The notes beneath the pieces are model-generated. The model saw only the letters and a program-made list of their open reading frames with translations, was not told where the DNA came from and did no database searches. 64,000 nucleotides of DNA from a virus (lineage: Duplodnaviria; Heunggongvirae; Uroviricota; Caudoviricetes): IMG/VR virus record IMGVR_UViG_3300032038_000042. One strand, given 5' to 3'. Shown piece by piece: positions 3,285-64,000 of the stretch. Numbering within the stretch: the first letter of the stretch is position 1; each line of letters starts with the position of its first letter. Made by a program: the position numbers and the translations under genes.

Positions 3285-4070
3285 ATGCAATCAGAAGAGC
3301 TTAAAAATTACATTAGCAGAAACACTCAACTCTTTTTCAGAAGAGCAGTTATATACGACAACATGAAAATAGGGTCTGACATGATCAGAGTTAGACCTTT
3401 GCCAGATTTCATGGGTTTTGCTGAACAGGATTTGCCGTATTTTGCTCCTTTTAATCCTTCTCAAGTTATAAAAGGTGTATCTGAAAAGCAAACTGGTGAC
3501 ATTAAAAAAGCAACTCAAGTTTGGTTACTTTGTACAGATGATTATAAAGTCGGTTGGATTTTTAGCGAAGCAAGCCAGCAGTATGCTACTAGTCAAACAA
3601 AAGTAGATGCTGCATGGGCTTTTAATGCGTTTAAAACACACATATTACGTCAACACTTAAAAACAAAAGGTGTAAACTACGACGAGATAAAAATACTTTT
3701 TAGTAATCAAAAGTTTGTTCAAAATTACATGGAAGCTGGTATTAAAACAGATGGTACAAATACCAGAACTGCAGTATCTATAGATGCAATAAACGTAAGA
3801 ACCGGAGAAAGGTGGATAATATTACAATCCGGTACATCTATATCTATCATGCAAGATGCGATTGAATTTCGCGTAGGATCTCCAAACAAGGATACTTCTT
3901 GGATTAAAATTACGGCTGGTATGATAGAATTAACAGCAAACAATATTGTAATTTACGGACGAAACGCGACATCTTTAGGAAAACACGGAATGAAAGTTTG
4001 CGGTATTTTAGGAGCTCCATCAGGTTTGGATGGTTCGCCAGTTACTCCAATTCCAGATGTAACTGTTTAA
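3285..4070 (+). CDS. Hypothetical protein, possible baseplate spike-like protein (weak)
   Basis: The C-terminal half (…ISIMQDAIEFRVGSPNKDTSWIKITAGMIELTANNIVIYG…) resembles the repetitive beta-strand segments of phage spike/gpV-like proteins. The assignment is tentative. Confidence 0.4.
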   Translation: MQSEELKNYISRNTQLFFRRAVIYDNMKIGSDMIRVRPLPDFMGFAEQDLPYFAPFNPSQVIKGVSEKQTGDIKKATQVWLLCTDDYKVGWIFSEASQQYATSQTKVDAAWAFNAFKTHILRQHLKTKGVNYDEIKILFSNQKFVQNYMEAGIKTDGTNTRTAVSIDAINVRTGERWIILQSGTSISIMQDAIEFRVGSPNKDTSWIKITAGMIELTANNIVIYGRNATSLGKHGMKVCGILGAPSGLDGSPVTPIPDVTV

Positions 4071-4831: not shown

Positions 4832-5681
4832 TAGTTAATCCTTTTAATGCTCTTTCTAAACGTAAAATATCTGTATCTTTTACATCTCCAGTTTTTAGAA
4901 TGTTTTTTCTAAAAAGTAAACCTTGTAATTGCTGAGTCTCTAAACTCGTGTGAAAAGTTGAAGGTATTTTTTCTCCTCTACTTTTTTCCGATGCAGAACC
5001 TTCCCCGATTTTTATATTTGAATCGTCAAATATTTTTACTTTGTTATTCAAATAACTTTTTAATAAAGCTGTCCTTTCTTGAATGAGTTTTGCTTGCTTA
5101 ATTCCCCAGTAATCTTTTGGATATCTATAATATTTATTATCTAAACCTTTATAAAAATCTGGTGCTTTATAATTATATAAAATTACTTTATTTAAATTCC
5201 AATTTAACTTTAAGTACTCTGCTAGCTCTTTTAAAGCTCGGGATTTGTCTGTGTTTGTAGGAAAGACTTGTTCGATATCCAAATCAATTACACTTTTTAA
5301 GTTTTCGTAACAAAGTGGACTATACGCATTACAAGAAAAAACAGTTTTTCCTCTATAGGTAATTTTATATGTCCGCATCTCTAATGTACTTAAATCAATT
5401 ACGAGATAGTCAGGATTTATAGACTCTATTGTAGATAATGCAGTTTTATTTAAATCAAACTGCATCGTCTTTTTTGTAAATGGAGCTGTCTCTTCTTTAC
5501 CTTTTATAAAAGGGGCTTCGTAAAAACTCTTGTAAGGAATATTCAAACCACTTTTAGTTGTAATTCCTAAAAAACAAGGTTGAAAAACATACGGTTCTAT
5601 CTCGATGTCTGTACCAGTAACAGCCTCTTTTAAAGTGTTCATACTGTTGCATACGCCAAGTAAAGCTATCTTTTTACTCAT
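4824..5681 (-). CDS. Hypothetical protein co-transcribed with the glycosyltransferases
   Basis: 285-aa ORF overlapping its neighbours by 8 and 4 nt (operon arrangement). No recognised motif. Confidence 0.5.
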   Translation of the reverse strand: MSKKIALLGVCNSMNTLKEAVTGTDIEIEPYVFQPCFLGITTKSGLNIPYKSFYEAPFIKGKEETAPFTKKTMQFDLNKTALSTIESINPDYLVIDLSTLEMRTYKITYRGKTVFSCNAYSPLCYENLKSVIDLDIEQVFPTNTDKSRALKELAEYLKLNWNLNKVILYNYKAPDFYKGLDNKYYRYPKDYWGIKQAKLIQERTALLKSYLNNKVKIFDDSNIKIGEGSASEKSRGEKIPSTFHTSLETQQLQGLLFRKNILKTGDVKDTDILRLERALKGLTSE

Positions 5682-61065: not shown

Positions 61066-62291
61066 TTGAAATTACAGGAAAGTATAATACAGCAAAAGTT
61101 TTGGTTTCTGATTGGACAAAGTTGGAAGAAGCTTGTCACAAGCAGATTTTGAATTTGCTTAACCAGAAGTTTGCAGAAGGATCAAAGATTGCTATCATGC
61201 CCGATTGTCACAGCGGAGCTGGCTGCGTAATTGGTTTTACTCAGACTATTGTTGACAGAGTCGTTCCAAATCTTGTCGGAGTTGATATTGGATGCGGAAT
61301 GCTTGTTTTGAAAATCGACAAAAAGTATGGCAAAGAACTCTTTAACAAACCAAATCTTGAAAAGCTTGACAAAGTAATCCGTCAGCATATTCCAATGGGA
61401 ATGAATCACAGAAATAAAAAACATGCTTTTTGTGATAAAGTTCACATTAATGAAATTAAGGCTCCAATTAACGCAGAAAAGCTTATGTTGAGTATTGGAA
61501 CAATAGGTGGTGGAAATCACTTTATCGAAGTTGATAAGGACAGCAATGGAGATTATTACATCGTAATTCACTCCGGATCTCGTCACCTCGGAATTGAAGT
61601 CTGTAAATACTATCAGAATTTGGCTATCAAATATCACTCTTCAAATACAAAAGAAAGAGATGAATTGGTTGCAAAATTGAAAGCTGAAGGAAGAGAAAAA
61701 GACATTCAAGCTGAACTTGCAAAGATCAAAAAGGAACCAATTCCAAACGAACTTGCATATTTGGAAGGAAACGATCTTAAAGATTATCTTCACGATATGA
61801 AACTTGCTCAGGAGTATGCAATTTGGAATCGCGAAGCAATGCTTGATGAAATTATGGAACACATGGGAATCAAAAAGAAGATGATTCTTGATAAGTTCTG
61901 TACAATTCACAACTACATCGATGTTGAAAACAGAATTCTTCGTAAGGGATCAATTTCTCTTCAGAAAGATGAAACAGCTATTATTCCAATAAATATGAGC
62001 TACGGCAGCTTGATTGTAAAGGGAAAAGGAAACGCAGAATACAACTTTTCAGGTCCTCACGGAGCAGGAAGGTTAATGTCGCGTTCAGCAGCAAAAGAAT
62101 CTCTTAAAATGGAGGATTTCAAAGCTTCTATGAAAGATGTTTTTACAACTTCAGTTTCAACTGCAACAATTGACGAAGCCCCAATGGCTTACAAACCTGC
62201 TGAAGATATTTTGGAAAACATTAAAGATCTTTGCGATGTAGTAGAAGTTATTAAACCAATCTACAACGTAAAAGCAGGTGACGAGGAATAA
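61062..62291 (+). CDS. rtcB: RNA 3'-phosphate ligase RtcB
   Basis: ...MPDCHSGAGCVIGF..., ...IGGGNHFIEV..., ...CTIHNYID... and ...GPHGAGR... are the RtcB metal-binding and guanylylation motifs. 409 aa. Confidence 0.8.
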   Translation: MIEITGKYNTAKVLVSDWTKLEEACHKQILNLLNQKFAEGSKIAIMPDCHSGAGCVIGFTQTIVDRVVPNLVGVDIGCGMLVLKIDKKYGKELFNKPNLEKLDKVIRQHIPMGMNHRNKKHAFCDKVHINEIKAPINAEKLMLSIGTIGGGNHFIEVDKDSNGDYYIVIHSGSRHLGIEVCKYYQNLAIKYHSSNTKERDELVAKLKAEGREKDIQAELAKIKKEPIPNELAYLEGNDLKDYLHDMKLAQEYAIWNREAMLDEIMEHMGIKKKMILDKFCTIHNYIDVENRILRKGSISLQKDETAIIPINMSYGSLIVKGKGNAEYNFSGPHGAGRLMSRSAAKESLKMEDFKASMKDVFTTSVSTATIDEAPMAYKPAEDILENIKDLCDVVEVIKPIYNVKAGDEE

Positions 62292-62309
62292 AGTTTTTCT
62301 AAAACTTTT

Positions 62310-62370
62310 TTAGTCAAGATCGACTATATTCATTCTTGAACAGTTGAAAAAATTAGTCGATCTTGACTAA
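62310..62370. repeat. Perfect 17-bp inverted repeat (TTAGTCAAGATCGACTA ... TAGTCGATCTTGACTAA) with a 27-nt spacer
   Basis: Read directly: 62310-62326 is the reverse complement of 62354-62370. It could be the rtcB terminator or a protein-binding/recombination site. Confidence 0.6.
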
Positions 62371-62384
62371 CTAAAAATTAGCAC

Positions 62385-62409
62385 TGCATAGGATGTTCCT
62401 ATTTTTATT
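62385..62409. repeat. Copy 1 of the 25-bp direct repeat TGCATAGG(A/T)TGTTCCTATTTTTATT (internal palindrome ATAGGA..TCCTAT)
   Basis: 24/25 identical to 63755-63779. The two copies bracket the non-coding RNA cassette. Confidence 0.6.
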
Positions 62410-62427
62410 TTTTTACAAAAAAAGTTA

Positions 62428-62449
62428 GATCGCTCTTCGGAAGAGCGAT
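62428..62449. promoter_or_regulatory. GC-rich palindrome ATCGCTCTTCGGAAGAGCGAT abutting the -35 element (operator-like or attenuator hairpin)
   Basis: Near-perfect 21-bp palindrome ending exactly where TTGAAA begins. Confidence 0.4.
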
Positions 62450-62477
62450 TGAAATACATCTCGCAGTTTAATATATA
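62449..62477 (+). promoter_or_regulatory. Sigma70-type promoter TTGAAA - 17 nt - TATATA driving the tRNA/tmRNA cassette
   Basis: -35 at 62449-62454 and -10 at 62472-62477 with a 17-nt spacer. Predicted start near 62485. Confidence 0.5.
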
Positions 62478-62697
62478 TATGCTAAAATGAGGTGAAATAA
62501 ATTCACAAGCAAGAGCTGCTCCTCATTGCTGAAGGCTCTTATAAAAATTGTGTGAATGTGTATGACAGTTTCTAGATCTTGTCACGTGACTTAAGGGGCT
62601 AAGGCCCTTCAGTGAAGTAAGAGTCTTCCGAGTTATAGGATTAGAAATTGTAACGAAACAGCACCCTTTTGACAGAGGTTGTGATAGGACGTTTTTT

Positions 62698-62770
62698 GGC
62701 CCTATTCGTTAACTGGATAAACGACCAGACTTCTAATCTGATAATCCCCGTTCGAGTCGGGGTAGGGTCA
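62698..62770 (+). tRNA. tRNA-Arg (anticodon TCT)
   Basis: Hand-folded cloverleaf. Acceptor GGCCCTA/TAGGGTC (7 bp, one G-U). D-arm CGTT-aactggata-AACG with G18G19. Anticodon arm CAGA-cTTCTAa-TCTG with U33 and A37. 4-nt variable loop. T-arm CCCCG-TTCGAGT-CGGGG. Discriminator A, no encoded CCA. Confidence 0.6.
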
Positions 62771-62902
62771 ATTTACCCATTGTGGATGGAAACGGTTTTA
62801 TGGTAGTTAGGTATAACAAAGGTCTTAAAACCTAGTTCTACAAGTGACTTGCGAAAGACAATCTAACAGTCAGCTACTTTTGCAAGTTGCGAAACTTTCT
62901 AC

Positions 62903-63280
62903 GGGGGTGAAAGGATTCGACTTGCAGGTAAGTAACAAAATTATCAGGTACATAAGTTATTGCACTTTAAAAGCAAACGTAACAAACGACGAAGAACAGT
63001 TTGAAGACATGAGAATGGCTGCTTAACCGCAACCTTCAAATGTTCCTAGTCCAAAGAGATTAGGTGCTTTGCGGAGAGGTTCCTATAGTATCCAAAAAAG
63101 TATCGCTACAATAGGATAAGGATTAGTAGAGAGGAGTCTGAAACCTGTAACTGATCACGAAAACAAACTGGTGGTAGAATCCGGTAGTCATTCCGAACAG
63201 AAAACTGACTTAAACCTGTATAGAAGTAGTTTTGTAAAAACCTGTTACAAGGACCCGGCTATCATATGCCGGCATCTCCA
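62903..63280 (+). ncRNA. ssrA: tmRNA (ssrA); predicted tag peptide ANVTNDEEQFEDMRMAA
   Basis: 5' end GGGGGTGAAAGGATTCGACTTGCAGG matches the tmRNA consensus (E. coli GGGGCUGAUUCUGGAUUCGACGGG). An A-rich stretch precedes the resume codon GCA at 62973, and the frame ends GCT GCT TAA at 63026. The 3' end has GGAC + T-arm CCGGC/GCCGG + acceptor CATCTCC pairing with GGGGGTG (two G-U) + A. The T-loop appears 8 nt long, which is atypical. Confidence 0.6.
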
Positions 63281-63745
63281 TTAAGGTATTTGTTTCCAAG
63301 TTTTTTGAAGCTTCCTTATAACTTCGGTTTGAAACATTAATGAAACTTGGTGGTGGATGAATGGTTGCCAAATCGGTGACATTCCCTAATACCTTTTAGC
63401 CTCAAAAGCTATTAGGTGTTTTAAGCTTTTGCTTCGAGTAAAGAACGCTAGAGTGAGTGACCGTAGCTACATAGTAGGATGAGTTACTTCAGAAAAAGAG
63501 AGTGGTGCGTATCTGAAAGCTCTCGTTTAGGTGTTATGTACAAGCACCTGTATAAGTATGATGTAGCAAGAGTGTTCCTCGCGGAGCTTTAAAAAGGGTA
63601 AATTGCTAGCTATACCTGGATTGGGGTTTGAGTAGTCTGTAAGCAACTTTACTGAACTGCAGAAAACAATTCTGAATAACCTTAAAGGTGGTATTGAAAG
63701 AGGAACGAAGCGTCCGAAAGGAAAGAGTAGGGATCTTTTTTTTGA
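63281..63745 (+). ncRNA. Unassigned GC-enriched non-coding RNA segment downstream of tmRNA, ending at an intrinsic terminator
   Basis: About 465 nt with no ORF of protein-like composition, visibly higher GC than the genome, and many local stems (e.g. TCCGAAAGGA). It ends with ...GTAGGGATCTTTTTTTTG at 63730-63745. No match to RNase P, SRP, 6S or tRNA consensus could be made by eye. Confidence 0.3.
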
Positions 63746-63754
63746 AAATTAAAT

Positions 63755-63779
63755 TGCATAGGTTGTTCCTATTTTTATT
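63755..63779. repeat. Copy 2 of the 25-bp direct repeat TGCATAGGTTGTTCCTATTTTTATT
   Basis: See copy 1. It lies immediately after the cassette terminator and upstream of the next + gene. Confidence 0.6.
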
Positions 63780-64000
63780 CTTAAGCAAAGATTTATACAA
63801 TCCGCAATTTTTTCTATATAAGATATGAAAATTAAATTCAGAAACTTTTGGATTTGGTTTAAGGATCAAATTATGTGAAGGAATTAACTTAACACCGTGC
63901 GGAAAAATAAAACTGTAAAGAAAGCAAAGAAACAAACTGCTGCAGCAAAAATGAAAGAAGAGTTTCGCTTGACACCTGAATGGTGGGCAATGCGAAAAGA

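Follow-up and report, generated by a model that had tools for sequence, protein, structure and literature searches.

The large non-coding RNA (ncRNA) ROOL was first found in rumen metagenomes. Both ROOL and GOLLD are large phage ncRNAs of about 580 to more than 800 nucleotides (nt) that often reside beside tRNA islands and whose function is unsolved, and the linker of GOLLD sometimes embeds tRNAs (PMC5737381; bioRxiv 10.1101/2024.12.08.627333). In this study, we examined a 64,000-nt stretch of DNA (hereafter the window) from a virus of the Caudoviricetes (IMG/VR record IMGVR_UViG_3300032038_000042), in which the gene for the RNA ligase RtcB is followed by a tRNA-Arg(UCU), a transfer-messenger RNA (tmRNA) and the leader, spacer and trailer that flank them. 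As with GOLLD and ROOL, GC-enriched non-coding RNA here surrounds a phage tRNA and tmRNA. Unlike those RNAs, however, the flanks match no Rfam family, no multi-junction or pseudoknotted fold is demonstrated for them, and they are conserved in sequence rather than in covarying helices. We regard the region as a candidate ncRNA that is unrelated to described families and lies in a known kind of context. On balance, we favor the interpretation that the flanks are selected, functional plus-strand ncRNA of an undescribed kind, produced as by-products of tRNA and tmRNA processing.

Other described RNAs share some of these attributes. The tRNA cluster of phage T4 yields the stable RNAs 'species 1 and 2' (rnaC and rnaD), which are about 120-140 nt long and are co-transcribed and co-processed with the phage tRNAs. 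The candidate RNA would likewise be made alongside a phage tRNA, but its trailer is about 460 nt long and follows a tmRNA, and no sequence relation is expected. YrlA RNAs are Y RNA-like ncRNAs that are linked to rsr and rtcB operons and that combine a long terminal stem with a tRNA-like domain. The locus shares with them the genetic link to RtcB and the presence of tRNA-like structure, whereas nothing in the window matches the YrlA family (RF02553) at E<=10 and no tRNA-like domain was found in the flanks. Functional spacers of the 3'ETS type are transcribed as part of a tRNA precursor, are set free by the nucleases that mature the tRNA and then have a role of their own. They are about 50 nt long and pair with known small RNAs (sRNAs), and the tRNA-precursor spacer 3'ETS-leuZ of Escherichia coli, studied by Lalaouna et al. 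in 2015, reportedly acts as an sRNA sponge. The conserved blocks of our locus resemble 3'ETS-leuZ (mentioned in PMC6191717) in that they correspond to the pieces that RNase P and RNase Z are predicted to release, but these pieces are 130-460 nt long and are encoded by a phage.

Our interpretation builds on the conservation of the flanks. The interval from the end of rtcB (62291) to the next plausible start (about 63897) spans 1.6 kb without a credible open reading frame (ORF), as a preliminary description of this DNA, made from the letters alone, had proposed for the flanks of the tRNA and tmRNA. It comprises the tRNA and a divergent tmRNA, both of which that description had also recognized, together with a leader of about 212 nt, a 131-nt spacer and a 462-nt trailer (Table 1). 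We sought homologues by using relatives of RtcB as synteny anchors. One such locus, L041 (ENA ERZ920175 scaffold_36), encodes an RtcB identical at 399 of 409 residues and carries the tRNA-Arg(TCT), the tmRNA and the flanks. A further homologue, L046 (Logan SRR33322316), was found via the L041 gene downstream of the cassette; it begins inside the spacer and spans the tmRNA and trailer. Another 3.8-kb ENA contig (L004) is identical to the window, so it has no comparative value.

Among the window, L041 and L046, the trailers are 96.7%, 94.5% and 94.0% identical in pairwise comparisons, and their lengths are maintained (462, 464 and 453 nt). The spacer, which the preliminary description had overlooked, is conserved like the trailer, with 93-98% identity to L046 over the part covered. 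Between the window and L041 the trailer has 15 mismatches over 461 aligned positions, whereas the third-codon positions of rtcB differ at 61 of 410 sites (14.9%; p=1e-9) and its four-fold degenerate sites at 17 of 140 (12.1%; p=1.6e-4). The comparison of L041 with L046 is independent of the first and yields 27 mismatches over 452 trailer positions, as against differences at 31 of 135 third-codon positions (23%) in a neighboring gene for a 134-amino-acid (aa) protein (p=9e-8). In both cases the trailer is 4-5 times less diverged than the third-codon positions of the flanking genes, and with 3.3-6% divergence, compared to 12-23% at silent sites, it has evolved more slowly than neighboring neutral positions. 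The intergenic DNA before and after the unit serves as an internal control and is only 88-91% identical, with 88-93% identity to the homologues over 63746-63880. The boundaries of conservation are also informative: it restarts 2 nt after each discriminator nucleotide and is lost a few nt short of each mature 5' end.

The RNA genes enclosed by these flanks show the opposite pattern and are more diverged than silent sites (p=0.002 for the tRNA and p=4e-12 for the tmRNA). The tRNA-Arg body is 69% identical between the window and L041, with 7 of its 19 pairs changed on both sides, and the tmRNA bodies are only 64-65% identical. L046 carries the L041 allele of the tmRNA (95.8% identical to L041 and 64% identical to the window), although three of the five T-stem pairs differ, by compensatory changes, between these otherwise 96% identical molecules.

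The flanks do not encode protein. Five 1-nt indels and one 9-nt deletion distinguish the three trailers, whose ORF sets differ and include no ORF common to all three. Short ORFs of 33-60 aa exist on both trailer strands, and a concatenated six-frame query against a set of 5.8 billion proteins gave nothing at E<=1. Because of the 1-nt indels and the lack of a shared ORF we consider the flanks non-coding. As their conservation nevertheless exceeds that of silent sites, and even that of the tRNA and tmRNA, the flanks are probably functional RNA.

Further indications come from base pairing. RNAalifold predicts 139 pairs for the three trailers, of which five show double changes and seven one-sided changes, and all seven of the latter interchange Watson-Crick and G-U pairs on the plus strand. 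Four of the five double changes fall in a single 8-bp helix (63528-63535/63543-63550), in which one more pair changes on one side via G-U. In L046 roughly half of the stem positions of this helix are different, yet seven of its eight pairs are kept, the loop-closing pair being the only one broken. The covariation score of the trailer is 0.077, compared to 0.052 for shuffles (0 of 500 reach the observed value) and at most 0.036 when pairing partners are slid, which is supportive but not decisive, as the three sequences are related and also served to derive the structure. In the leader, for which two sequences are available, four pairs are changed on both sides, distributed over three hairpins. 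Two of the four lie in the AAGAGC/GCTCTT stem (62511-62540) that had been noted previously. Other stems noted at the same time fared less well: one reported as GGGGC/GCCCC is really GGGC/GCCC (62596-62607) and is deleted in L041, while the stem TCCGAAAGGA at 63709-63718 is present but invariant, and hence uninformative. In the spacer hairpin, a G-to-A change at 62853 converts a G-U pair to A-U in both homologues.

The composition of the flanks is likewise distinctive. GC content is 39.6% in the leader, 37.4% in the spacer and 39.2% in the trailer, compared to a window mean of 33.5% and to 25-28% in the intergenic DNA on either side. The trailer falls within the highest 2.7% of 465-nt windows and the leader within the highest 5%. 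The GC enrichment described earlier is therefore real, but it does not exceed that of every coding region, since the maximum is 41.5%. Selection on the flanks is supported by this enrichment together with low divergence, indel tolerance and compensatory hairpin changes. The earlier account had named a decaying spacer, with variable length and no covariation, or a small protein as the outcomes that would speak against a structured RNA, and instead we find maintained lengths, compensatory hairpins and no shared ORF. Functional ncRNA is thus the best reading, because length is kept, identity is 94-97%, indels break the reading frames and hairpins change in a compensatory manner.

Table 1. Features of the rtcB-tRNA-tmRNA locus. 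Positions refer to the window unless another locus is named; identities are between the window and L041.
Feature	Position	Strand	Identity to L041	Details
RtcB gene	ends at 62291		93.9% (nucleotides)	
Hairpin directly 3' of RtcB stop	62310..62370	+		arms 62310-62323 / 62357-62370
R1, repeat copy 1	62386..62409	+	24/24	GCATAGGNTGTTCCTATTTTTATT; weak hairpin then T-run, 24 nt
Hairpin	62429..62449	+	68%	ATCGCTCTT-CGG-AAGAGCGAT; flagged as minus-strand terminator-like site
Promoter-like region	62449..62488	+	97% (block 62453-62484)	TTGAAA 62449-62454, 17 nt, TATATA 62472-62477; overlapping extended -10 TGcTAAAAT 62480-62488
Leader	62485..62696	+	5' part 88%; patch 62587-62640 62%; 3' block 94.5%	hairpins L1 62501-62507/62551-62557, L2 62512-62517/62534-62539, L3 62614-62617/62625-62628
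tRNA-Arg(UCU)	62697..62771	+	69%	ARAGORN; Rfam 51 bits; no encoded CCA
Spacer	62772..62902	+	94.6%	131 nt; 14-bp hairpin 62844-62857 / 62877-62890
tmRNA, divergent	62903..63283	+	64%	Rfam RF00023, end-to-end alignment; discriminator 63280; no encoded CCA
Trailer, candidate ncRNA of about 460 nt	63284..63745	+	96.7%	conservation from 2 nt past tmRNA discriminator to U-run 63736-63743
Trailer hairpin, helix 11	63528..63550	+		8-bp stem, constant 7-nt loop (A/G)UGUACA
R2, repeat copy 2	63756..63779	+	88% (R2 and post region)	hairpin and T-run, 24 nt
Right end of conserved module	63780..63880	+		L041 and L046 homology ends at about 63880
L041 tRNA allele	L041 11622-11698			
L041 tmRNA allele	L041 11827-12210			
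L046 tmRNA	L046 69-454			

If the flanks are functional ncRNA, then 62485-63745 would constitute one non-coding transcription unit, an accessory module following RtcB that yields tRNA-Arg(UCU) and tmRNA. RNase P would cut at the 5' ends of both RNAs. Neither gene encodes CCA, so maturation of the 3' ends should require an endonucleolytic cut of the RNase Z type after the discriminator. The conserved blocks match these predicted cut sites, and by-product RNAs of about 200, 130 and 460 nt would therefore be released. The leader maintains its hairpins by compensatory changes while its sequence drifts, the spacer and the 462-nt trailer hardly vary in sequence, and the covarying trailer hairpin presents its constant loop. 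Co-transcription and fragment release are suggested by promoter-like and terminator-like motifs and by the agreement of the conserved boundaries with mature ends; transcription itself, the processing sites, the stability of the fragments and any function in trans are likewise inferred, whereas conservation beyond that of neutral sites, the non-coding nature and local covariation are observed. The trailer would most likely be a stable RNA, produced along with the tRNA and tmRNA, that acts in trans or binds protein; the hairpins of the leader and spacer probably contribute, in addition, to the stability or processing of the precursor. We would propose any such specific role with far less assurance than the existence of a function.

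Several observations weigh against a function for the flanks. The comparison set comprises three sequences (two for the leader) from one phage lineage, so both trailer function and a global fold are candidates only. The locus has a mosaic history, with tRNA and tmRNA bodies 31-36% diverged beside flanks diverged by 3-5%, so that apparent constraint could also arise from coalescence times that differ locally. Direct DNA searches of IMG/VR, JGI metagenomes and GenBank phages gave no homologue. Moreover, the cassette is dispensable, as most relatives with 94-98% identical RtcB lack it. A cmscan of 62250-64000 on both strands (E<=10, permissive filters) assigned the flanks to no Rfam family and returned only tRNA, tmRNA and chance hits of at most 24 bits. 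Minimum free energies (MFE) do not differ significantly from those of dinucleotide shuffles (z of -0.29 for the trailer, -1.11 for the leader and -1.10 for the spacer), and thus the earlier impression of a region packed with stems does not hold beyond chance by energy. This test is weak here, because the tRNA and tmRNA fail as positive controls. In 120-nt sliding windows z ranges from +1.4 to -2.2 within the trailer, and the sole standout of the scan is the hairpin after RtcB, the tRNA and tmRNA windows being unremarkable too. Finally, 121 of the 139 trailer pairs never vary and eight are disrupted in one sequence or more (two of the eight also vary compatibly), and the structure was predicted from the same sequences in which the pairs were counted. 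With no thermodynamic signal either, the large ornate fold envisaged in the preliminary description is not demonstrated; what survives of its candidate structured RNA is functional ncRNA as the best reading.

Some of these observations would be explained if the flanks were neutral precursor spacers whose similarity reflects recent ancestry or recombination, such as hitch-hiking or gene conversion among co-circulating phages. Consistent with this are the mosaic locus, the presence or absence of the cassette among near-identical rtcB genes, the lack of an MFE signal and the predominance of invariant, and hence uninformative, pairs. However, this would require the low-divergence tract to coincide precisely with the trailer and the spacer, and to do so in each of two independent pairwise comparisons, while divergence is clearly higher in the adjacent intergenic DNA (88-91% identity) and at silent sites (77-88%). 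Nor would neutral evolution be expected to produce compensatory changes in four hairpins, and the GC content of the flanks exceeds that of the flanking intergenic DNA by 11-14 points. We therefore consider neutrality unlikely, if less so than the explanations that follow. Selection could instead act on the DNA: the flanks might, for instance, bind proteins, take part in replication or packaging, or offer homology arms through which tRNA and tmRNA alleles are exchanged. That the spacer and trailer conserve sequence more than structure, that 24-nt direct repeats bracket the module and that the bodies of the RNA genes seem to have been exchanged while the flanks stayed constant would all fit such an element. 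It is made improbable by the absence of iterons or repeat families in the trailer, by G-U pairs and G-U-mediated one-sided changes that fit only the plus strand as RNA, by the coincidence of the conserved blocks with RNA-processing boundaries rather than with positions independent of the genes, and by the placement of the region within a unit that has promoter-like and terminator-like motifs at its ends.

The trailer might also be a decayed remnant, either a pseudo-tRNA of a former array or a pseudogenized or very small protein gene. ARAGORN at a relaxed setting reports a 'tRNA-Gly' at 63346-63439, and ORFs of 33-60 aa are present, but the tRNA-like candidate has mismatched stems and is missed by ARAGORN defaults and by Rfam, every frame is broken by 1-nt indels without a shared ORF or a protein match, and a remnant would not exceed silent sites in conservation. 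This explanation is already largely refuted and appears very improbable. A bolder proposal goes beyond functional by-products: leader, spacer and trailer (about 750 nt of conserved sequence) might together form a single large scaffold RNA that represents a new class and functionally resembles GOLLD and ROOL. In this scaffold the tRNA and tmRNA would be exchangeable cargo in variable linkers, the palindromic UGUACA loop would make an inter-molecular kissing contact, and the hyper-divergence of the tRNA and tmRNA bodies would stem from cargo alleles being swapped under host RNA-targeting defenses. We mention this scaffold as an improbable speculation.

In the scan described above, GOLLD (RF02032), ROOL (RF03087), HEARO, raiA, RNase P RNA, group I and group II introns and YrlA (RF02553) gave no match at E<=10, in agreement with the earlier failure to recognize a family by eye, and positions 11000-14200 of L041 likewise yielded no Rfam family for the flanks. 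As a positive control, the Rfam search found a 175.8-bit GOLLD in a phage tRNA array (L026). The tRNA island of this IMG/VR contig combines the GOLLD RNA with a permuted tmRNA (2524-2979 and 5446-5667). A second phage array, of 23 tRNAs (L016), contains a YrlA-like match of 46.9 bits at 3889-3995 (gathering score 69, E 2.5e-8). A covariance model built from trailer helices 8-11 found no match in 344 kb of other phage loci. In the trailer, no tRNA is reported by ARAGORN at its defaults or by the tRNA model of Rfam (E<=10), and the 94-nt pseudo-tRNA candidate mentioned above, which ARAGORN proposes at an 80% threshold, was rejected because many of its stem pairs are mismatched.

We also looked for pairing beyond local hairpins. 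Leader, spacer and trailer show no mutual complementarity above shuffles, and a leader-trailer processing stem like that of rRNA precursors was rejected because the duplex energies lie within those of shuffles. No antisense match to the flanks exists elsewhere in the window.

The usual T-loop of a tmRNA is UUCGAAN, and that of the window tmRNA is the non-canonical UAUCAUAU. This divergent gene matches RF00023 with 44 bits (gathering score 47, E 9e-16) and is missed by ARAGORN. As read from the sequence, it has the G3-U70 pair and a tag frame, ANVTNDEEQFEDMRMAA, that ends in AA followed by a stop codon. At 381 nt it is shorter than other phage tmRNAs that share its 5' end (410-457 nt). The L041 allele scores 69.8 bits and is called by ARAGORN, and it has a canonical T-loop and an altered 5' D-analogue. 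The divergence of tRNA and tmRNA bodies inside constant flanks could result from allele swapping, gene conversion or diversifying selection. It is known that huge phages can carry tmRNAs (PMC7162821), and phage tRNAs have been proposed to evade tRNA-targeting defenses (PMC10264068). Such evasion could be related to the hyper-diverged bodies observed here.

The locus adds a candidate to the enigmatic large RNAs of phage tRNA islands and ties it to a translation-rescue and repair set composed of RtcB, tRNA-Arg and tmRNA. Its pattern is unusual in that the supposed 'spacers' hardly change at all, whereas the canonical RNA genes that they enclose differ by a third and carry compensatory changes. 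The pattern points either to selection on the by-products of processing or to phage tRNA and tmRNA being subject to an arms race or to an exchange of alleles. For ncRNA annotation, the flanks of phage tRNA precursors ought not to be dismissed as spacers.

A promoter and a terminator had been predicted for the unit; a consensus scanner calls neither on the plus strand, although TTGAAA-17-TATATA and TGcTAAAAT are visible by eye and would place the transcription start at about 62485 or about 62495. The TGcTAAAAT motif is kept in L041, but the TTGAAA hexamer is not. Just upstream, the hairpin at 62429-62449 is poorly conserved, and in the alignment a different L041 hairpin (GATCGCT-TGTCA-GGTGATC) occupies the equivalent position. 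Downstream of the start the leader contains its variable patch, followed by a conserved 3' block (62641-62696); a U-run closes this block ahead of the 5' end of the tRNA.

The unit is bracketed by two copies of a 24-nt repeat, which are the only ones in the window, where none are expected by chance. R1, which looks like the terminator of rtcB, is unchanged in L041, and R2, the likely terminator of the RNA operon judging by its hairpin and T-run, differs at a single position from its counterpart in L041 and likewise in L046. In the otherwise unrelated IMG/VR phage tRNA array L016 (3533-3553), the 21-nt repeat core (GCATAGGNTGTTCCTATTTTT) recurs immediately after a tRNA-Phe; it may be a terminator common to phage tRNA regions or a hairpin that binds protein there. 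Between rtcB and R1 lies the hairpin that dominates the MFE scan, a near-perfect 14-bp inverted repeat with a 33-nt loop (z about -6 in a 120-nt window). It is conserved in L041, relative to which it shows one compensatory A-U to U-A exchange and a second change that stays compatible with G-U pairing. This hairpin belongs to the conserved module, was outside the interval described earlier, and could be an RNase III site or the rtcB terminator. At the other end, the last segment of the module (63780-63880) is probably the promoter region of the next gene, and the genes beyond about 63880 differ between the window and the homologous contigs.

The direct searches covered the cassette in several ways. 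A blastn search of GenBank phages with the whole gap gave no match. Exact k-mer scans found nothing in JGI metagenomes and nothing in IMG/VR except one chance match in a contig of 50% GC, and a scan of genome contigs from a species-genome set with a 20-mer gave three isolated matches in unrelated organisms, which is about the chance expectation. Six-frame stop-free pieces, used as degenerate DNA probes against IMG/VR and JGI, revealed no relatives. IMG/VR phage tmRNAs that share the 5' end of the window tmRNA have flanks dissimilar to these. The gaps of about 455 nt in those phages are mutually alignable, vary in the manner of third-codon positions and have an ATG start; they are a candidate short ORF and show no similarity to the trailer.

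Among RtcB relatives, the cassette appears to be an accessory insert at a hypervariable position, because contigs with 72-98% identical RtcB mostly run straight from RtcB into protein genes. Where RtcB identity is 61-63%, the IMG/VR loci lack a tmRNA downstream of RtcB. After RtcB genes that are 94-98% identical we find a DUF7695 gene, a terminator and an unrelated ORF, a 145-aa ORF overlapping the stop codon, or the tRNA-tmRNA cassette, and comparison of the downstream regions (L005, L010, L011, L012, L034-L045) reveals that the stop codon itself marks the point where homology is lost. Contigs related to the window are as long as 404-425 kb, and among GenBank phages the closest RtcB is less than 57% identical; the phages concerned are very large and belong to an uncultivated lineage. 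RtcB forms of 774-777 aa, possibly fusions with a downstream gene, share 90% identity clusters (P0124 and P0160) with the 409-aa protein, and their contigs extend up to 422 kb. In L041 (12810-13369) and L046 (1045-1606), the cassette and the gene for the 134-aa protein are separated by 560 nt that lack a called gene and are 93.5% identical. This stretch seems to hold an uncalled short cysteine-rich ORF (ending ...YKCLFCDGYHVGKNRDNK) and two terminator-like hairpins.

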